A stretch of DNA of 11,875 nt, taken from the IMG/VR virus record IMGVR_UViG_2698536366_000007, one strand, 5' to 3'. Under the pieces are notes generated by a model. It was given only the letters and a program-made list of their open reading frames with translations. It was not told the origin of the DNA and searched no databases. Made by a program: the position numbers and the translations under genes. This DNA is from a virus. Lineage: Duplodnaviria; Heunggongvirae; Uroviricota; Caudoviricetes. Positions 2,853 to 11,501 of this stretch are shown here, piece by piece (the stretch's first letter is position 1; every line of letters begins with the position of its first letter).

Positions 2853-3233
2853 ATGACCGAGCGCATAGAATTTGTTTTACCTTACCCGCCGACGGTGAAC
2901 ACTTACTGGCGTCGTCGTGGCAGCACATATTTTGTATCAAAAGCCGGGGAGCGTTATCGCCGGGCAGTGGCGCTTATTGTTCGCCAGCAGCGGCTGAAAT
3001 TAAGCCTGTCCGGAAGGTTGGCAATAAAAATTATTGCAGAACCACCGGATAAGCGCCGCCGTGACCTGGACAATATTCTGAAAGCGCCGCTGGATGCGCT
3101 GACGCATGCGGGGTTGCTAATGGACGATGAGCAGTTTGATGAAATCAATATCGTTCGTGGTCAGCCAGTATCTGGTGGACGTCTGGGGGTGAAGATTTAT
3201 CCCATAATGCTTGAAGGGCAGGTCAAAAAATGA
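2853..3233 (+). CDS. rusA: RusA-like Holliday junction resolvase
   Basis: 126 aa with the RRRDLDN acidic motif and overall similarity to E. coli RusA; ATG immediately follows the upstream stop. Confidence 0.8.
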   Translation: MTERIEFVLPYPPTVNTYWRRRGSTYFVSKAGERYRRAVALIVRQQRLKLSLSGRLAIKIIAEPPDKRRRDLDNILKAPLDALTHAGLLMDDEQFDEINIVRGQPVSGGRLGVKIYPIMLEGQVKK

Positions 3234-4051
3234 AACTGGAAGATTTACCGAAATACTACTCCCCAAAATCCCCCGGCCTGACTGATGCATCGGCCTCAAC
3301 GTCGAAAGATGCGCTGAGTATCACTGATGTGATGGCCGCGCAGGGCATGACACAGAATCGGGCTGAGATGGGGGTTTCTGCGTTCCTTGGGAAAATGGGC
3401 ATTAGTATGAATGACAGAGAGCGGGCAACAGAATTGCTGACAGAATATGCACTCAGTCGGTGTGATCGCGTGGCGGCGTTAAGAAAACTCCCGGCAGAAA
3501 TAAAACCGGCAGTGATGCGTATTATGGCTTCGTATGCGTTTGAAGATTATGCCCGTAGCGCGGCGAGCAAAAAACAGTGCCCCTGCTGTCACGGAAAAAA
3601 ATTTATTGAAAGCGAGGTTTTTACAAACAAGATCCAGTATCCGGATGGTAAGCCGCCGGTATGGGCAAAGTGTACGAAAGGTGTGTATCCGTCTTACTGG
3701 GAAGAATGGAAAAAAGTCAGGGAGGTGGTAAAAGTTGCCTGTCCGGAGTGTGGCGGAAAGGGTGAGGTTTCCACCGCCTGTAAGGATTGCCGTGGGCGTG
3801 GTGTCGCCATTCATCGTGAAGAGTCGGTAAAACGTGGTATGCCTGTTATCAGAGACTGCCAGCGTTGTGGTGGTCGTGGCTATGAAAGACTACCATCAAC
3901 GGAGGCATTTAATGCTATATGCGAGGTGACAAACCAGATAACACGCGCGTCATGGGAAAAAACAGTTAAGAAATTTTATGATGCGCTGGTGACCCGGTTT
4001 GATATTGAAGAAGCATGGGCTGAGCGGCAGTTAAAAAAGGTAACTAGGTAA
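3230..4051 (+). CDS. Q: late-gene antitermination protein Q (phage 82/Qin type, zinc-binding)
   Basis: 273 aa; several CxxC pairs (CPCCHGKK, CPECGGKG, CKDCRGRG, CQRCGGRG); ATGA overlap with rusA; immediately followed by a PR'-like promoter and terminator. Confidence 0.8.
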   Translation: MKLEDLPKYYSPKSPGLTDASASTSKDALSITDVMAAQGMTQNRAEMGVSAFLGKMGISMNDRERATELLTEYALSRCDRVAALRKLPAEIKPAVMRIMASYAFEDYARSAASKKQCPCCHGKKFIESEVFTNKIQYPDGKPPVWAKCTKGVYPSYWEEWKKVREVVKVACPECGGKGEVSTACKDCRGRGVAIHREESVKRGMPVIRDCQRCGGRGYERLPSTEAFNAICEVTNQITRASWEKTVKKFYDALVTRFDIEEAWAERQLKKVTR

Positions 4052-4056
4052 CAAGG

Positions 4057-4084
4057 TTGATTTTTCCGGAATCTGTGGTAAATT
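4057..4084 (+). promoter_or_regulatory. candidate late promoter PR' (with qut region) downstream of Q
   Basis: -35 TTGATT (4057-4062), 16-bp spacer, extended -10 TGgTAAATT (4076-4084). Confidence 0.5.
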
Positions 4085-4133
4085 CGTCATAACGATGGGC
4101 GTTTTATGCCTGACGTTAGAAGAGTTTCTACAA

Positions 4134-4155
4134 CCCGCCGCCGAGCGGGTTTTTT
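4134..4155 (+). terminator. tR'-like intrinsic terminator
   Basis: CCCGC-cgccga-GCGGG stem-loop followed by TTTTTT, about 50 nt downstream of the PR' -10. Confidence 0.7.
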
Positions 4156-4275
4156 ATGACTGAAATCGCGTCAGTACAGTAAACGCGCTGGTGGCGGTGA
4201 ATACCTGTCTTTCAGCTTGCTGGCTTTTTCGACAAGAGTTATTGGTGTGTCACGTTAACCGGAAAAGGAAAAGAC

Positions 4276-4473
4276 ATGCTAAAACAGCAGGATATGACAG
4301 AAACCGCCAGAGTGGTGTTTAATGAATTAAGCGTTACCGAACCGGCGACAGTCGGGGAGATAGCGCAGAATACTTACCTTTCACGCGAACGCTGCCAGTT
4401 AATACTGACCCAGCTGGTTATGGCGGGTCTGGCAGACTATCAGTTCGGTTGTTACAGACGCCTTCCGCAGTGA
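4276..4473 (+). CDS. small hypothetical protein (65 aa), possible winged-helix DNA-binding protein
   Basis: ATG 4276 preceded by AAGGAAAAG; helix-turn-helix-like segment VGEIAQNTYLSRERCQLILTQL. Confidence 0.5.
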   Translation: MLKQQDMTETARVVFNELSVTEPATVGEIAQNTYLSRERCQLILTQLVMAGLADYQFGCYRRLPQ

Positions 4474-4484
4474 AGGCTTTTTTA
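4460..4484 (+). terminator. intrinsic terminator overlapping the stop of the 65-aa ORF
   Basis: Stem GCCTTC / GAAGGC with 6-nt loop followed by TTTTTTAT. Confidence 0.55.
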
Positions 4485-4500
4485 TTTGTGGTAAATGGGC

Positions 4501-4531
4501 GGCTGGTGGGTGTTAGGGGCACCCACCAGCC
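4501..4531. repeat. perfect 12-bp inverted repeat (GGCTGGTGGGTG ...7 nt... CACCCACCAGCC)
   Basis: Exact reverse-complement arms read directly from the sequence, between the 65-aa ORF and the methyltransferase. Confidence 0.8.
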
Positions 4532-4623
4532 ATCTGCTCATGCGTTGGGTTCACAAGCAAACCTCAGGCCCACTGCTTTGCGCAAAAGCAGAATGAGCCT
4601 ATCAGAGACAGGCTTAATGATCC

Positions 4624-5682
4624 ATGCTTAATACTGTAAAAATATCCAGTTGTGAGTTAATCAACGCCGACTGCCTGGAATTTATCCGGTCGTTACCCGA
4701 AAATTCTGTTGACCTGATAGTCACGGACCCGCCGTACTTTAAAGTGAAGCCTGAGGGCTGGGATAACCAGTGGAAGGGCGACGATGATTACCTGAAGTGG
4801 CTGGACCAGTGTCTGGCGCAGTTCTGGCGGGTGCTGAAACCTGCCGGAAGTCTTTACCTGTTCTGTGGTCATCGCCTGGCATCTGATATCGAAATCATGA
4901 TGCGTGAACGCTTCAGTGTGCTGAACCATATTATCTGGGCGAAGCCGTCCGGACGCTGGAACGGATGCAACAAGGAAAGCCTGCGGGCGTATTTCCCCGC
5001 CACAGAGCGCATTCTGTTCGCGGAACATTATCAGGGGCCGTATCGTCCGAAAGATGCCGGGTATGCGGCGAAGGGCAGTGCACTGAAACAGCATGTGATG
5101 GCCCCGCTGATTTCTTACTTTCGTGATGCGCGAGCTGCCCTGGGGATAACGGCAAAACAGATTGCAGATGCCACAGGAAAGAAAAACATGGTGTCGCACT
5201 GGTTCAGTGCCGGTCAGTGGCAGTTGCCGAATGAAAGCGATTATCTGAAATTACAGGCGCTGTTTGCCCGGGTGGCAGAAGAGAAGCATCGGCGTGGTGA
5301 ACTGGAAAAGCTCCACCACCAGCTGGTGGATACGTATACCTCACTGAACCGGCAGTATGCGGAGCTGCTGAGTGAATATAAACATCTGCGGCGGTATTTT
5401 GGCGTGACGGTGCAGGTGCCGTATACCGATGTGTGGACGCATAAACCGGTGCAGTTCTATCCCGGGAAACATCCGTGCGAAAAACCGGCAGAAATGCTGC
5501 AGCAGATAATCAGCGCTAGCAGTCGTCCGGGTGACCTGATTGCAGATTTTTTCATGGGGTTGGGTTCGACAGTGAAAGCGGCACTGGCGCTCGGGCGTCG
5601 TGCAATTGGCGTTGAGCTGGAGACTGAACGTTTTGAGCAGACGGTTCGGGAAGTACAGGATTTAGTCAGCCAGAACGGATGA
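4624..5682 (+). CDS. DNA methyltransferase, beta-class amino-MTase (N6-adenine or N4-cytosine), phage-borne and apparently orphan
   Basis: 352 aa; N-terminal DPPY motif (VDLIVTDPPY) and C-terminal FxGxG AdoMet motif (FFMGLGST); no restriction endonuclease partner seen in the window. Confidence 0.85.
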   Translation: MLNTVKISSCELINADCLEFIRSLPENSVDLIVTDPPYFKVKPEGWDNQWKGDDDYLKWLDQCLAQFWRVLKPAGSLYLFCGHRLASDIEIMMRERFSVLNHIIWAKPSGRWNGCNKESLRAYFPATERILFAEHYQGPYRPKDAGYAAKGSALKQHVMAPLISYFRDARAALGITAKQIADATGKKNMVSHWFSAGQWQLPNESDYLKLQALFARVAEEKHRRGELEKLHHQLVDTYTSLNRQYAELLSEYKHLRRYFGVTVQVPYTDVWTHKPVQFYPGKHPCEKPAEMLQQIISASSRPGDLIADFFMGLGSTVKAALALGRRAIGVELETERFEQTVREVQDLVSQNG

Positions 5683-5722
5683 TATTGAAGAATTAATTAC
5701 GCGTCGTTATTATGCGGCTCCC

Positions 5723-5798
5723 GGCCCTTTAGCTCAGTGGTGAGAGCGAGCGACTCATAATCGCCAGGTCGCTGGTTCAAATCCAGCAAGGGCCACCA
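5723..5798 (+). tRNA. ileZ: tRNA-Ile (anticodon CAU, ileX-like minor isoleucine tRNA), copy A
   Basis: Cloverleaf by eye: acceptor GGCCCTT/AAGGGCC, anticodon loop CTCATAA, T-arm GCTGG-TTCAAAT-CCAGC, encoded CCA; close to E. coli ileX. Confidence 0.85.
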
Positions 5799-5805
5799 TC
5801 ACATA

Positions 5806-5882
5806 CCGCCATTAGCTCATCAGGAAAGAGCGCCAGCCTTCGAAGCTGGCTGCGCGGGGTTCAAGTCCCCGATGGCGGTCCA
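5806..5882 (+). tRNA. argN: tRNA-Arg (anticodon UCG), copy A
   Basis: Acceptor CCGCCAT/ATGGCGG, anticodon stem CCAGC/GCTGG with loop CTTCGAA, T-arm CGGGG-TTCAAGT-CCCCG, encoded CCA. Confidence 0.75.
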
Positions 5883-5895
5883 TTATCTGCATCAT

Positions 5896-5972
5896 GCGTT
5901 GTTAGCTCAGCCGGACAGAGCAATTGCCTTCTAAGCAATCGGTCACTGGTTCGAATCCAGTACAACGCGCCA
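5896..5972 (+). tRNA. argO: tRNA-Arg (anticodon UCU), copy A
   Basis: Acceptor GCGTTGT/ACAACGC, anticodon stem ATTGC/GCAAT with loop CTTCTAA, T-arm ACTGG-TTCGAAT-CCAGT, encoded CCA. Confidence 0.85.
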
Positions 5973-5986
5973 CACTTATTTTCCCT

Positions 5987-6012
5987 GGCTCGCTTTTGCG
6001 GGCCTTTTTTTT
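5987..6012 (+). terminator. candidate intrinsic terminator after tRNA cluster copy A
   Basis: Imperfect GC stem (GGCtCGC / GCGGGCC) followed by a T8 run. Confidence 0.45.
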
Positions 6013-6416
6013 AAATGTCTCACAATTCAGACGGTTGACAGTTGTCTGTTTTGCGGGGAGTTTGTTAAAAGAAACTGGCATGGTGAATCCCCCTGTGCGG
6101 AGGGGCAATCAGCGAGTAGGTATATGGGATAATCGCGGATTCAGGTGCTGGTACTGAATTCACCGGGAGGCACCCGGCATCATGCAATGGCACATAGCGC
6201 CACTCTCCAGCCCTCTCCGGAGGGGCTTTTCTGTGCCGGATACATCACAGTTTCTGGAACCTTAGGTACTACAGTATCAGTCAGGGTGCTATATTTTCAG
6301 ATGTGATGAAAGCCTGTCAGCAGGCAGGGCGTATCGGAAATGACCCAGTAGAGAAAACGTTGACTCAGATACCGGTGCTGAGTTACCGGGAAACCGGCAT
6401 CACATGACCGCTATCC
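6011..6416 (+). repeat. conserved non-coding element X, copy A (core 6011-6227 shared by all three copies; 6228-6416 shared with copy B only)
   Basis: Near-identical to 8281-8685 and, for the core, to 10923-11130; no convincing ORF; contains TTGACA at 6035-6040 and two GC hairpins sharing CGGAGGGG. Confidence 0.7.
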
Positions 6417-6814
6417 TGAGGTGTACTGGCAATAGCGGACACTACCATTTGTTCTTTTTTTAAGCAGCCATCTGATGATATTTTTCCCTGAAGGCTGCCG
6501 GGGAGATATTCCCCAGACGAGAGTGACGACGCTGACGATTGTAGAAAATCTCAATGTATTCCCGTATTACTGAGATGGCTTCATCCCGGTTATTAAAACG
6601 ATAGTGGCTCAGGCTCTCATTTTTCAGCGTTCCCCAGAAGCTTTCCATCGGAGCGTTGTCGTAACAGTTACCTTTACGCGACATTGATGTTTTCAGACCA
6701 GACTGCTCCTGTATGACCCGGTAATCGTATGCGCAGTACTGTGAACCTCGATCAGAGTGGTGGATTAGCCCGGCAGGTGGGCGCTGGCTCCTGAGCGCCA
6801 TAAACAGGGCTTTA
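6417..6814 (-). mobile_element. IS600 fragment (398 bp from the orfB end, including the terminal inverted repeat)
   Basis: Matches 8686-8083 of the complete copy, then switches abruptly into Q coding sequence at 6815. Confidence 0.85.
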
Positions 6815-7232
6815 TCCAGTATCCGGATGGTAAGCCGCCGGTATGGGCAAAGTGTACGAAAGGTGTGTATCCGTCTTACTGGGAAGAATGGAAAAAAGTC
6901 AGGGAGGTGGTAAAAGTTGCCTGTCCGGAGTGTGGCGGAAAGGGTGAGGTTTCCACCGCCTGTAAGGATTGCCGTGGGCGTGGTGTCGCCATTCATCGTG
7001 AAGAGTCGGTAAAACGTGGTATGCCTGTTATCAGAGACTGCCAGCGTTGTGGTGGTCGTGGCTATGAAAGACTACCATCAACGGAGGCATTTAATGCTAT
7101 ATGCGAGGTGACAAACCAGATAACACGCGCGTCATGGGAAAAAACAGTTAAGAAATTCTATGATGCGCTGGTGACTCGGTTTGATATTGAAGAAGCATGG
7201 GCTGAGCGGCAGTTAAAAAAGGTAACTAGGTT
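6815..7232 (+). pseudogene. 3' fragment of a second Q antiterminator gene (about 139 codons), stop codon lost through a small deletion
   Basis: About 99% identical to 3634-4051, with SNPs and a 6-bp deletion that removes the stop; fused to the IS600 fragment. Confidence 0.8.
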
Positions 7233-7258
7233 GATTTTTCCGGAATCTGTGGTAAATT
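7231..7258 (+). promoter_or_regulatory. second copy of the PR'-like promoter
   Basis: Same -35 TTGATT and extended -10 TGgTAAATT as at 4057-4084. Confidence 0.45.
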
Positions 7259-7307
7259 CGTCATAACTATGGGCGTTTTATGCCTGACGTTAGAAGAGTT
7301 TCTACAA

Positions 7308-7329
7308 CCCGCCGCCGAGCGGGTTTTTT
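7308..7329 (+). terminator. second copy of the tR'-like terminator
   Basis: Same CCCGC-cgccga-GCGGG stem plus T-run as at 4134-4155. Confidence 0.65.
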
Positions 7330-7368
7330 ATTGCGGAATTAATTACGGACCGTTATTATTCTGCTCCC

Positions 7369-7444
7369 GGCCCTTTAGCTCAGTGGTGAGAGCGAGCGAC
7401 TCATAATCGCCAGGTCGCTGGTTCAAATCCAGCAAGGGCCACCA
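7369..7444 (+). tRNA. ileZ: tRNA-Ile (CAU), copy B
   Basis: Identical to 5723-5798. Confidence 0.85.
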
Positions 7445-7451
7445 TCACAAA

Positions 7452-7531
7452 CCGCCATTAGCTTATCAGGAAGAGCAGACGACACGATAACAGGGTTGTT
7501 GGTGCGGGGGCGGGTCCCCGATGGCGGTCCA
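7452..7531 (+). pseudogene. degenerate tRNA-Arg-like sequence (probable tRNA pseudogene), copy B
   Basis: Acceptor and D arms match the copy-A tRNA-Arg(UCG), but the anticodon arm is replaced by unrelated sequence and the T-loop lacks TTCRA. Confidence 0.6.
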
Positions 7532-7544
7532 TTATCGGTATTCA

Positions 7545-7621
7545 GCGTTGTTAGCTCAGCCGGACAGAGCAATTGCCTTCTAAGCAATCGGTCACTGGTT
7601 CGAATCCAGTACAGCGCGCCA
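7545..7621 (+). tRNA. argO: tRNA-Arg (UCU), copy B
   Basis: Same as 5896-5972 with one acceptor-stem change (A to G, giving a G-U pair). Confidence 0.8.
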
Positions 7622-8085: not shown

Positions 8086-8280
8086 ATACATATCTGGATT
8101 ATCACCTGTTACGGTAAAAAGTGATTGCTTACTGTTTTTGTGAATGGCATTGCAGCAGCCGGATAATGTCAGTGCTGGCTGACGGTGTGCTGGTGGCGGG
8201 TGTGGTGGTTGTTGCTTTCCCGTTGCTGAAAAAGAAAACGCCAGACTGTTAGCCGGGTATCAGTTAGCGGGAGAAATTTT

Positions 8281-8685
8281 TAAATACTTCACAATTCAGG
8301 CGGTTGACTGTTGTCTGGTTTGCGGGGAGTTTGTTAAAAGAAACTGGCATGGTGAATCCCCCTGTGCGGAGGGGCAATCAGCGAGTAGGTATATGGGATA
8401 ATCGCGGATTCAGGTGCTGGTACTGAATTCACCGGGAGGCACCCGGCATCATGCAATGGCACATAGCGCCACTCTCCAGCCCTCTCCGGAGGGGCTTTTC
8501 TGTGCCGGATACATCACAGTTTCTGGAACCTTAGGTACTACAGTATCAGTCAGGGTGCTATATTTTCAGATGTGATGAAAGCCTGTCAGCAGGCAGGGCG
8601 TATCGGAAATGACCCAGTAGAGAAAACGTTGACTCAGATACCGGTGCTGAGTTACCGGGAAACCGGCATCACATGACCGCTATCC
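8281..8685 (+). repeat. conserved non-coding element X, copy B
   Basis: Matches 6011-6416 (SNPs in the first 40 bp, identical thereafter up to the IS600 junction). Confidence 0.7.
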
Positions 8686-8728: not shown

Positions 8729-9547
8729 TTAAGCAGCCATCTGATGATATTTTTCCCTGAAGGCTGCCGGGGAGATATTCCCCAGACGAGAGTGACGACG
8801 CTGACGATTGTAGAAAATCTCAATGTATTCCCGTATTACTGAGATGGCTTCATCCCGGTTATTAAAACGATAGTGGCTCAGGCTCTCATTTTTCAGCGTT
8901 CCCCAGAAGCTTTCCATCGGAGCGTTGTCGTAACAGTTACCTTTACGCGACATTGATGTTTTCAGACCAGACTGCTCCTGTATGACCCGGTAATCGTATG
9001 CGCAGTACTGTGAACCTCGATCAGAGTGGTGGATTAGCCCGGCAGGTGGGCGCTGGCTCCTGAGCGCCATAAACAGGGCTTTACCTGTCAGCTCTTTTGT
9101 CATGCGCTCTCCCATGGCGTAGCCGACAATTTCGCACGTATAAACATCTTTGATGCCAGCGAGGTACAACCATCCCTCCTGTGTGGCAACATACGTCAGG
9201 TCCGCCACCCAGACCTGATTTGGTGCTGTAGGAGCGAACGTCTGGTTCAGCAGATTTGGCGCAACTGGCAGATTGTGGTTCGAGTTCGTAGTCGCTCTGA
9301 ACTTGCGTTTCTGCTTACAGCGTAGCCTTAGCTCCTTACGAAGACGTGCCAGTCGGTCACGACCAACGATGATGCCATTCTCTGCCAGCTCCGTCTGGAG
9401 CCGCCGGGTTCCATATGTTTCGCGAGTGCGGATATGTGCCACCTTAATCTCCAGTTTTAGCCGCTCATCACTTTGTTTTCTGTCTGAGGGTTCATGCTGT
9501 ACCCAGTTGTAATAACCGCTCCTGGATACACCAAATACCTGACACAT
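8729..9547 (-). CDS. IS600 transposase OrfB (DDE integrase domain), expressed as an OrfAB fusion by -1 frameshifting
   Basis: 272 aa from the first ATG; IS3-family OrfB sequence; the frame is open upstream into the orfA 3' end. Confidence 0.9.
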   Translation of the reverse strand: MCQVFGVSRSGYYNWVQHEPSDRKQSDERLKLEIKVAHIRTRETYGTRRLQTELAENGIIVGRDRLARLRKELRLRCKQKRKFRATTNSNHNLPVAPNLLNQTFAPTAPNQVWVADLTYVATQEGWLYLAGIKDVYTCEIVGYAMGERMTKELTGKALFMALRSQRPPAGLIHHSDRGSQYCAYDYRVIQEQSGLKTSMSRKGNCYDNAPMESFWGTLKNESLSHYRFNNRDEAISVIREYIEIFYNRQRRHSRLGNISPAAFREKYHQMAA

Positions 9548-9582: not shown

Positions 9583-9885
9583 TTAACGCGTATTTTTCAG
9601 CGACTCCTGTGCAAAATACGCTGTTGCTTTTTTTAATATATCTCGCTCAAGGCGAGCTTCATTTAACGCCTTACGCAGTTGCAGAATTTCAGATTCCAGT
9701 TCAGCCACCGTGCGGGAACCAGGAGTACCGAGCCCTTTTCTGGCGGCGGTAACCCATTGTCCTAAAGTGCCTTCAGGAAGAGATAATCGGGAAGCGCCTT
9801 CACTGATCGAAAGTTGATTTTCAAGAACCGTTCTGACAGCTTCGGCTTTGAACTCTTTAGAGTAACGTTGGGTTTTTCTGCTCAT
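9583..9885 (-). CDS. IS600 transposase OrfA (helix-turn-helix / leucine zipper)
   Basis: 100 aa; A AAA AAG slippery heptamer on the coding strand (plus-strand T7 run at 9628-9634) near its 3' end. Confidence 0.9.
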   Translation of the reverse strand: MSRKTQRYSKEFKAEAVRTVLENQLSISEGASRLSLPEGTLGQWVTAARKGLGTPGSRTVAELESEILQLRKALNEARLERDILKKATAYFAQESLKNTR

Positions 9886-10001
9886 TATTAGCTCCTTCTG
9901 ATGCCATTCTATTTCAGGAAGGAGTGTCCGTTAAACTCAGGCTACCTCAAGGGTGGTTTTTTATTGCGGAATTAATTACGGACCGTTATTATTCTGCTCC
10001 C

Positions 10002-10077
10002 GGCCCTTTAGCTCAGTGGTGAGAGCGAGCGACTCATAATCGCCAGGTCGCTGGTTCAAATCCAGCAAGGGCCACCA
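10002..10077 (+). tRNA. ileZ: tRNA-Ile (CAU), copy C
   Basis: Identical to 7369-7444. Confidence 0.85.
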
Positions 10078-10084
10078 TCACAAA

Positions 10085-10164
10085 CCGCCATTAGCTTATC
10101 AGGAAGAGCAGACGACACGATAACAGGGTTGTTGGTGCGGGGGCGGGTCCCCGATGGCGGTCCA
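10085..10164 (+). pseudogene. degenerate tRNA-Arg-like sequence, copy C
   Basis: Identical to 7452-7531. Confidence 0.6.
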
Positions 10165-10177
10165 TTATCGGTATTCA

Positions 10178-10254
10178 GCGTTGTTAGCTCAGCCGGACAG
10201 AGCAATTGCCTTCTAAGCAATCGGTCACTGGTTCGAATCCAGTACAGCGCGCCA
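10178..10254 (+). tRNA. argO: tRNA-Arg (UCU), copy C
   Basis: Identical to 7545-7621. Confidence 0.8.
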
Positions 10255-10718: not shown

Positions 10719-10922
10719 ATACATATCTGGATTATCACCTGTTACGGTAAAAAGTGATTGCTTACTGTTTTTGTGAATGGCATTGCAGCAGCCGGATAAT
10801 GTCAGTGCTGGCTGACGGTGTGCTGGTGGCGGGTGTGGTGGTTGTTGCTTTCCCGTTGCTGAAAAAGAAAACGCCAGACTGTTAGCCGGGTATCAGTTAG
10901 CGGGAGAAATTTTTAAATACTT

Positions 10923-11130
10923 CACAATTCAGGCGGTTGACTGTTGTCTGGTTTGCGGGGAGTTTGTTAAAAGAAACTGGCATGGTGAATCCCCCTGTGC
11001 GGAGGGGCAATCAGCGAGTAGGTATATGGGATAATCGCGGATTCAGGTGCTGGTACTGAATTCACCGGGAGGCACCCGGCACCATGCAATGGCACATAGC
11101 GCCACTCTCCAGCCCCTCTCCGGAGGGGCT
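10923..11130 (+). repeat. conserved non-coding element X, copy C (core only)
   Basis: Matches the 6011-6227 core with two differences, then diverges into unique AT-rich sequence. Confidence 0.7.
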
Positions 11131-11162
11131 GTTTATATTGATTTTGTCAGATGTGAGTAAAC

Positions 11163-11196
11163 TCCTTATGGACTTTGTTGTTTTAGTCCATAAGGA
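11163..11196. terminator. perfect 12-bp stem hairpin (TCCTTATGGACT ...10 nt... AGTCCATAAGGA), probable terminator for the minus-strand ORF
   Basis: Exact inverted repeat overlapping the stop of the 11166-11501 minus-strand ORF; U-tract is weak on both strands. Confidence 0.5.
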
Positions 11197-11501
11197 CATA
11201 TTTGCAGAGTGCAACGGTTATTAAAGCATTCATTCAATACGTTATCTGTATTTGTAGGGCATTCCTGGCTATTTTTGATTGAATTCCAGAATGTTTTATT
11301 GAATGGTACTACGTTGTAAATGGTTACAGGTAGCACTTTGTTATTGAGCATGATGCCTGTGTGAGTCAGTGTAAATATACTTTCAGGAGGTAAGAAAGCA
11401 TCCGATTGATACCAGATTATTAATTTTATTTTACTCCATATGACTGAAAAAGATATTCCGCATGATGGCTGGATAACTGTATCAATCACAATCCACTTCA
11501 T
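11166..11501 (-). CDS. hypothetical protein (111 aa) in an AT-rich island, oriented against late transcription; moron-like
   Basis: ATG with SD AAGGA at 6-nt spacing on the minus strand; hairpin at its 3' end; AT-rich codon usage distinct from the phage backbone; no family recognised. Confidence 0.5.

Follow-up and report, generated by a model that had tools for sequence, protein, structure and literature searches.

Hia5, Hin1523, and Nma1821 are prophage-encoded adenine methyltransferases of relaxed or no sequence specificity from Haemophilus and Neisseria that are presumed to serve in anti-restriction, and Drozdz et al. reportedly described them in 2012 as phage-borne non-specific enzymes. 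C proteins are XRE-type helix-turn-helix (HTH) proteins that act together with a restriction gene and bind palindromic C-boxes upstream of their own gene, and structured cis-regulatory leaders of messenger RNAs (mRNAs) include riboswitches, ribosomal-protein leaders, and phage translational operators such as the MS2 and T4 regA/gene 32 sites. Here we compare with these systems a locus in the IMG/VR record IMGVR_UViG_2698536366_000007, a stretch of 11,875 nucleotides (nt; hereafter the window) that is the late-regulatory region of a lambdoid, Shiga-toxin (Stx)-phage-like prophage and in which a small open reading frame (ORF), a spacer, and an adenine methyltransferase gene follow one another at positions 4276–5682. 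The methyltransferase is a relative of M.EcoGII, for which Murray et al. (2018, PMC5778455) report that adenine is methylated in any sequence context, that the gene and its twin M.EcoGI lie on prophages of Escherichia coli O104:H4 C227-11, that neither is expressed in the lysogen, that expression of M.EcoGII is deleterious to cells, and that phage 1720a-02 carries a very similar gene; the same authors propose broad protection from restriction as its role. Enzymes of the M.EcoGII family have been characterised and are on sale for footprinting of chromatin and RNA, and the gene itself is not news; the interest lies in the natural control of a toxic, lysogen-silent methylase that in many Shiga-toxin phages lies between Q and the stx genes.

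We propose that the locus represents the first late-gene cassette of lambdoid prophages, made up of a winged-helix gene, an RNA leader, and an M.EcoGII-family methyltransferase, and that it probably serves a Q-dependent, anti-restriction hypermethylation that is silent in lysogens and tuned by the leader. The parts on which this proposal draws are the following:

3230–4051, + strand: antiterminator Q gene (Pfam Antiterm PF03589, E = 1.6e-53)
4132–4158, + strand: tR'-like intrinsic terminator with a 7-base-pair (bp) GC-rich stem (hairpin 4132–4151) and a T run
4276–4473, + strand: ORF of a 65-residue predicted winged-helix protein, with its own Shine-Dalgarno sequence, AAGGA
4460–4484, + strand: terminator-like hairpin over the stop codon of the small ORF (stem-loop 4460–4477, T run to 4484)
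4484–4632, + strand: structured RNA leader of the methyltransferase mRNA, supported by covariation and fold
4624–5682, + strand: ORF of the M.EcoGII-family methyltransferase, 352 residues (Pfam match and M.EcoGII identity)

The ORFs, terminator, palindrome, and motif order that had been read from these letters by an earlier annotation (the original prediction) were each found at the positions it had given.

The 352-residue product is an M.EcoGII-family beta-class N6-adenine DNA methyltransferase whose catalytic activity is predicted from its sequence. It matched Pfam N6_N4_Mtase (PF01555) over residues 29–340 (E = 7.9e-42; 144.1 bits versus a cut-off of 26.7) and has the beta-class motif order, with DPPY at residues 35–38 ahead of FMGLG at residues 309–313; DPPY, the catalytic motif, was kept in 180 of 181 homologues. 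Over its full length it was identical to M.EcoGII at 324 of 349 residues (93%, 2 gaps; the first 100 residues identical), counted against a reference that was machine-read from the PDF supplement of PMC11551740 and holds a few misreads. These comparisons establish the family identity of the enzyme. Relatives in the PDB were M.RsrI, CcrM, DpnA, and MboIIA; the PDB held no M.EcoGII structure, and the best matches there were distant beta-class enzymes. A weak HTH_3 match fell at residues 167–195. The long variable region had been thought to hold a target-recognition specificity, a claim that had to be given up: because the enzyme is so nearly identical to the non-specific M.EcoGII, this region is not the seat of a hidden specificity, and its central part corresponds to the M.EcoGII domain modelled as a four-helix bundle (residues 160–237) with a charged linker (PMC11551740). 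Since the enzyme is predicted to be non-specific, a restriction partner is not expected, and among Pfam neighbours and annotations no nuclease or restriction gene adjoined the cassette in the window or in the other loci inspected (Salmonella, Klebsiella, Providencia, the phage contig L118, Stx2 phages, and phiP27), so that its description as an orphan beta-class methyltransferase was borne out.

The 65-residue ORF encodes a real, conserved protein of predicted winged-helix fold, for which nucleic-acid binding is likewise predicted. Its family comprised 338 clusters in a first search and ∼435 in a profile search, and its named sources (Escherichia, Shigella, Salmonella, Klebsiella, Citrobacter, Buttiauxella, Proteus, Providencia, and Xenorhabdus) are all Enterobacterales; 13 residues were invariant, clustered in an N-terminal MLKxxDMT and in CQLILTQLxxAG. 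The family corresponds to PHROG 331, where its function is listed as unknown, and bears the RefSeq name "TrmB family"; Pfam matches (TrmB, MarR, DprA_WH) were weak. An AlphaFold2 model whose pLDDT (predicted local distance difference test) averaged 92.7 placed helices at residues 9–16, 26–33, and 37–49 and the strands of a beta-hairpin at 53–56 and 59–62, in agreement with the HTH-like protein that had been predicted. Searched with Foldseek, this model returned only generic winged helices (E ∼1e-3), with query-normalised TM-scores of up to ∼0.8 to those of OhrR/MarR and IclR and up to ∼0.7 to the domains of SelB that bind selenocysteine insertion sequence (SECIS) RNA; dimerisation domains of O-methyltransferases were among the matches too.

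The linkage of the two genes is established by searches from either side: 23 of the 24 species-level loci found through the small protein carry an M.EcoGII-like gene (62–97% identity) ∼150 nt downstream, and 78 of the 80 phage loci found through the methyltransferase carry the small ORF. Three loci (L159, L166, and L169) keep the leader and the methyltransferase and lack the small ORF, from which we conclude that the leader belongs to the methyltransferase and that the small protein is no absolute requirement. Annotations of the gene pair exist in thousands of genomes, and the cassette was present in 2347 of 5426 (43%) complete E. coli genomes, where it can occupy as many as 10 places and has up to 98% identity to that of the window, and in 254 phage records, mostly Stx2 phages; phage 1720a-02 was its second-best phage match (94.8% nucleotide identity). 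Two decayed cassettes were also seen. One (L102:3168–3308) holds a truncated small ORF and the leader without a methyltransferase, the ATG being followed by a stop codon; the other, in E. coli (NZ_CM132956.1), retains only the first quarter of the block, including the small ORF, and is annotated with a hypothetical protein and a DUF3927-family protein.

The cassette lies directly 3' of a Q gene both in the window and in four other loci (Salmonella, Klebsiella, Providencia, and L118); Stx2 phages and phiP27 have it between Q and the tRNA/stx genes. The Q genes upstream of it span three Pfam families (PF03589, PF06530, and PF06323), and downstream of it the four checked loci have holin, lysozyme, or other late genes. 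These neighbours establish that the Q-dependent late operon opens with the cassette, irrespective of the Q type. That it behaves as a separable module, as the original prediction held, is evident from the window itself, which repeats parts of the region as copies B and C: copy B (6814–7338, then 7329 onward) is identical up to the T run of tR' and continues with the sequence found after 5687, and in copy C (9955 onward) the same T run is likewise joined straight to post-methyltransferase sequence. Because the segment ∼4158–5687 is missing from both, we regard it as a discrete insertion/deletion unit whose left edge is the T run of tR' (∼4158) and whose right edge follows the methyltransferase stop codon (∼5687).

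The spacer between the two genes is ∼135 nt long, is conserved across Enterobacteriaceae and Morganellaceae to a degree exceeding that of the small ORF, and varies in a structured manner. From 24 sequences, RNAalifold predicted five helices in it:

4495–4500 with 4536–4541, + strand: helix A
4501–4512 with 4520–4531, + strand: helix H, a perfect 12-nt inverted repeat with a 7-nt spacer, the palindrome of the original prediction
4549–4553 with 4618–4622 and 4555–4558 with 4612–4615, + strand: helix B
4567–4573 with 4593–4599, + strand: helix C
4575–4579 with 4585–4589, + strand: helix D

A covariance model derived from the 24-sequence alignment found exactly one plus-strand match per locus in 65 loci (70–180 bits) and three further weak matches in a distant group with a shorter leader. 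Across 62 distinct sequences, 93.4% of cells were standard pairs, versus 29–47% when the partners were slid by 1–3 columns, the first of these percentages being inflated by an alignment that is fitted to the structure. Double-sided changes occurred at 15 of 38 pairs (140 cells, versus at most 36 in the slid controls), and none of 500 shuffles reached the observed value on any of five pairing measures. Since the covariance-model alignment is fitted to the model, the test was repeated with a plain MAFFT alignment of 29 sequences, in which RNAalifold found helices A, H, and B anew, supported by 10 compensatory pairs. Over all helices there were 193 G-U cells versus 34 A-C cells, an imbalance that fits plus-strand RNA and fits neither a protein-binding palindrome in DNA nor a minus-strand RNA. 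The fold of the leader in the window had a z of −3.7. The spacer thus points to a conserved structured plus-strand RNA, not a DNA operator, and we take the conservation of this structure as established.

Helix H ends 92 nt before the ATG at 4624, and by our own arithmetic (11875 × 8 / 4^12) a perfect 12-bp hairpin with a loop of 3–10 nt would be expected ∼0.006 times by chance in 11.9 kb. Relatives keep the repeat, with covariation at 7 of its 12 pairs; in Providencia-type phages, for example, GGCUGGUGGGUG/CACCCACCAGCC is replaced by GACUGUAAAGGUG/CACCCUUACAGUC. In most Enterobacteriaceae the commonest form contains a bulged G and a U-G wobble, and for this reason it is no DNA palindrome there. 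Together, helices A and H form an almost continuous duplex of ∼18 bp. Helix B, formed by GGUCA and UGAUC, reaches to 2 nt before the methyltransferase AUG and is kept in nearly all E- and P-group sequences; no Shine-Dalgarno sequence precedes this start codon in the window or in any group. Nearly all E- and P-group sequences, though not L170, have a GATC (Dam) site 2–5 nt before the ATG (window 4618–4622), and the helix B partner strand of the Morganellaceae group, GAUCA, likewise contains GATC; we attribute its conservation to the pairing of helix B. At its other end, the leader opens with a conserved CUGUGAAAUGGGC, which the small ORF overlaps or precedes by 0–12 nt, so that a ribosome terminating there would sit on the 5' strand of helix A, a possible coupling of the two genes. 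A distant branch of IMG/VR contigs with Xenorhabdus-like small proteins (L171–L188) has a much shorter leader that retains GUGAAAUGG, a long hairpin, and AUUCGCCUGU and lacks helices C and D, which suggests that the RNA leader was built up modularly.

A permissive search (E up to 1) of positions 3900–6200 against Rfam 15 (4227 families) gave no plus-strand match to 4484–4632; the other matches in the searched stretch were tRNAs, the small RNA STnc100, and chance matches. The sole Rfam overlap with the leader, a minus-strand match to P26 (24 bits versus a threshold of 36), was taken as chance. A minus-strand RNA was considered and set aside: it folds about equally well in the window alone, but the wobble pattern of the family and the covariance-model matches favour the plus strand. 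A hidden coding frame was rejected also; the ATG at 4495 opens 33 codons in the window, but in relatives this frame is broken by indels and meets an early stop. Neither leader nor cassette is described in the comparative study of pR' (PMC6266700), the EcOnc small-RNA study (PMC4104026), or the StxS study (PMC7547250), and the examined passages of the M.EcoGII work (PMC5778455) describe neither the winged-helix ORF nor the structured leader. The leader, with its possible two-state behaviour and its fixed association with a winged-helix gene, thus appears to be undescribed.

The possible second state comes from an extra helix, 4533–4538 with 4556–4561, that covaries in columns left unpaired in the main fold. 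The column pair 4535/4559 reads UA 17 times, CG 14, AU 5, and UG 2, and neighbouring pairs vary between GC (47) and AU (8) and between CG (35) and UA (22). Since the extra helix overlaps the 3' strand of helix A and the inner 5' strand of helix B, it is incompatible with both. In addition, UGGGC (4496–4500) and GCCCA (4568–4572) are 99.7% complementary and almost invariant, with one supporting and one contradicting sequence, and this pairing together with the extra helix would form a three-way junction that frees the start region. By ViennaRNA the alternative fold lay within 1–3 kcal/mol of the main fold in some sequences, 5–8 above it in others, and ∼6 above it in the window. The covariation hints at an alternative fold, and a pseudoknot fits the data equally well. 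A bolder idea, which we regard as doubtful though worth stating, is that the spacer is a new class of regulatory RNA switch whose two exclusive folds, each maintained through compensatory evolution, gate translation of the toxic methyltransferase, with S-adenosylmethionine/S-adenosylhomocysteine or the winged-helix protein, as an RNA-binding regulator, for its trigger. Were this true, an RNA switch would have gone unnoticed in 43% of complete E. coli genomes and directly upstream of stx in many Shiga-toxin phages.

Transcription signals around the cassette bear on when it would be expressed. The second terminator in the window fits the consensus, with 6 bp followed by TTTTTTATTT, and a hairpin over the stop codon of the small ORF recurs with different stems in Enterobacteriaceae-type and Xenorhabdus-type loci, the stop codon lying in or beside the loop. 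A promoter scan found no promoter-like site next to the inverted repeat or ahead of the methyltransferase. TGTGAAAAT, which looks like an extended −10 element, was considered as an internal promoter but found no support, since many relatives read GGAAAT and the scan was negative there.

With these signals, the cassette would work as follows. In a lysogen, transcription from the late promoter would stop at tR', as in Stx phages (PMC7547250), and the enzyme would be off; in the lineage of the window, a second stop would occur at the hairpin over the small ORF's stop codon. On induction, Q-modified RNA polymerase would read through, and the enzyme would be made along with the lysis and morphogenesis genes. 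It would then hypermethylate replicating phage DNA, and the progeny could escape many restriction systems in the next host. Because helix B ends 2 nt before an AUG that lacks a Shine-Dalgarno sequence, the most likely task of the leader is to set or switch methyltransferase translation, with either direction possible. The winged-helix protein, inherited along with them, would be an accessory and would most likely act as a regulator through binding of the leader or DNA.

Several observations weigh against this proposal. The small ORF had been assigned a terminator of its own at 4460–4484, and this holds in part: hairpin and strong U run are there in the window, but in most relatives the run is weak or interrupted, and Providencia/Proteus-type (Morganellaceae-type) loci lack the stop-codon hairpin. 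For the anti-restriction role, the one source is the suggestion of Murray et al. With the AUG and the A-rich codons that follow unpaired in the main fold, the leader may exert no repression on translation. The misread reference behind the M.EcoGII identity and the structure-fitted alignment behind the pairing percentage count on the same side, as does the U-U mismatch within helix B of the window. Finally, motif I of the window allele reads FMGLGS (5554–5562; Leu codon TTG at ∼5554–5556) versus FMGSGS in 104 homologues; the Leu form was limited to the window and four identical IMG/VR contigs (L005–L008), and the closest solved relative has Ser at this position. With Leu in motif I, a mismatched helix B, and a rearranged prophage carrying an insertion sequence (IS) element and repeats, the window copy may be weakened or inactive.

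Other explanations were weighed against the same evidence. The one that survives best, which we nevertheless judge unlikely, holds that the spacer serves mainly in RNA processing or stability, or as a small RNA in its own right (for instance as an RNase III site in the A+H stem or as an RNA derived from the 3' untranslated region of the small ORF), rather than in translational control. The long, almost continuous A+H duplex and the start of the element 0–12 nt after the small ORF's stop codon would suit it, and prophage late regions are rich in small RNAs (PMC4104026), with an STnc100 match in the window itself. Against it, nearly all E- and P-group sequences keep the helix B pairing of the 5 nt that stop 2 nt short of the AUG, the element invariably adjoins the start of the methyltransferase with no terminator after it, and the EcOnc small RNAs known so far have been mapped to the 3' side of the moron and not to this spacer (PMC4104026).

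Rather less probable is that the winged-helix protein acts on the enzyme or its product, as an antitoxin-like inhibitor, a loader or targeter to phage DNA, or a reader of N6-methyladenine. M.EcoGII alone was active and non-specific in vitro according to PMC5778455, three loci manage without the small ORF, and no methylation-reader domain stood out among fold matches that were generic winged helices (E ∼1e-3); these facts argue against such a role despite the near-obligate linkage across several genera, the harm that M.EcoGII does to cells (PMC5778455), and the ability of some prokaryotic winged-helix domains, reported in PMC11037411, to sense adenine methylation. We give still less credence to a lysogenic-conversion "moron" that would methylate host DNA or RNA and alter host expression instead of protecting phage DNA. 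The cassette does occupy the moron insertion site downstream of PR' (PMC4104026) and occurs at up to 10 sites per E. coli genome, and M.EcoGII is reported to methylate RNA in vitro too; yet two terminators and no promoter-like site precede the gene, and PMC5778455 has M.EcoGI and M.EcoGII not expressed in the lysogen and constitutive expression harmful. Last, the controller/operator arrangement offered by the original prediction, in which the 65-residue protein would bind the 4501–4531 palindrome in DNA like a C protein and govern methyltransferase transcription, can draw on the winged-helix fold and on a perfect 12-bp repeat between two tightly linked genes, but it is very improbable given a transcribed repeat that lies downstream of the small ORF with no promoter-like site adjoining, is imperfect in most relatives (bulged G, U-G wobble), changes in ways that keep plus-strand RNA pairing only (the G-U excess above), and is stacked on helix A within a larger covarying fold, and given that no restriction gene is present and that in three loci hairpin and methyltransferase persist although the small ORF is missing.

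The neighbourhood of the cassette in the window comprises these further features:

1794–2852: DUF968 gene, an upstream neighbour
2853–3233: RusA gene, an upstream neighbour
5685–5713, + strand: promoter-like site, sigma-70-like (TTGAAG-17-TATTAT), right after the methyltransferase stop and before the first tRNA
5723–5972, + strand: three tRNAs (Met-CAT, called by ARAGORN; Arg-TCG; Arg-TCT)

In phage Sp5 a tRNA promoter lies between tR' and stx2 (PMC7547250), and the site at 5685–5713 agrees with this placement. ARAGORN called Met-CAT tRNAs at 5723–5798, 7369–7444, and 10002–10077, the first copy of the region (copy A) having three tRNAs and copies B and C two each; the counterpart genes in phiP27 and in a related E. 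coli RefSeq genome are annotated as tRNA-Ile (ileZ-like), an annotation of CAT tRNAs that presumably relies on lysidine modification. Just 3' of the tRNA cluster, STnc100 matched 6049–6200 with 99 bits (threshold 47), a match that reaches the end of the Rfam-searched stretch (3900–6200), and the sequence bearing it is repeated at 8264–8563 and 10897–11196 in copies B and C. The ORF at 11166–11501 (− strand) appears to be the gene of the anti-adapter protein IraM, which is found in the same place in E. coli strain 131 and, in Stx2 phages, at the equivalent position just 3' of stx2B.

The window contains no stx genes, and its closest match among complete E. coli genomes covered 82% of it at ∼95% identity. 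A segment comprising the 3' end of Q, tR', and the tRNAs is present in triplicate (repeat pairs 3632–4164 with 6814–7338, and 7322–7621 with 9955–10254). The copies are separated by a two-ORF element (8729–9547 and 9583–9885, both − strand) that resembles an IS3-family insertion sequence, possibly IS600, and by a partial copy fused to the antisense of Q in a chimeric ORF (6460–6996, − strand). From the triplicate segment, the IS-like element, and the chimeric ORF we conclude that this prophage region has been rearranged or amplified.

The fixed three-part cassette offers a testable handle on the safe use of a non-specific methylase by phages. With the leader, E. coli and related bacteria, in which new RNA motifs have become rare, gain a well-supported candidate for a structured RNA, and if the leader is a true switch, it could be of use as a compact control part for toxic genes.

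Set beside described systems, the locus stands closest to M.EcoGII and M.EcoGI, with which it shares 93% identity, the beta-class motif order, a prophage location, the lack of a restriction partner, and a close relative in phage 1720a-02; it differs from M.EcoGII in having FMGLGS where that enzyme has FMGSGS and three extra C-terminal residues. Hia5, Hin1523, and Nma1821, likened here by description, are similar in prophage origin and relaxed specificity and come from different hosts. With C-protein systems the locus has in common a small gene for a DNA-binding-type protein beside a methyltransferase gene and an inverted repeat nearby. However, the window has no restriction gene, its small protein is a predicted winged helix and not an XRE-type HTH protein, and its repeat, transcribed and located downstream of the small gene, is kept as an RNA helix and not as a DNA palindrome; because these three defining features turned out otherwise, the locus is not a C-protein system. 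The leader matches none of the 4227 families of Rfam 15, but it resembles structured mRNA leaders in its conserved multi-helix 5' architecture, its compensatory changes, a helix adjoining the start codon, and a possible alternative helix exclusive of the main pairing. Finally, in comparison with the PR'-tR' region and StxS of Stx phages (Sy et al. 2020, PMC7547250), the window has its terminator ∼80 nt after the Q stop codon, a Q of the PF03589 type, and no stx genes, and it shares with that region Q, the late promoter region, the terminator, morons and tRNAs, the lysis genes, and a tRNA promoter 3' of the terminator region.

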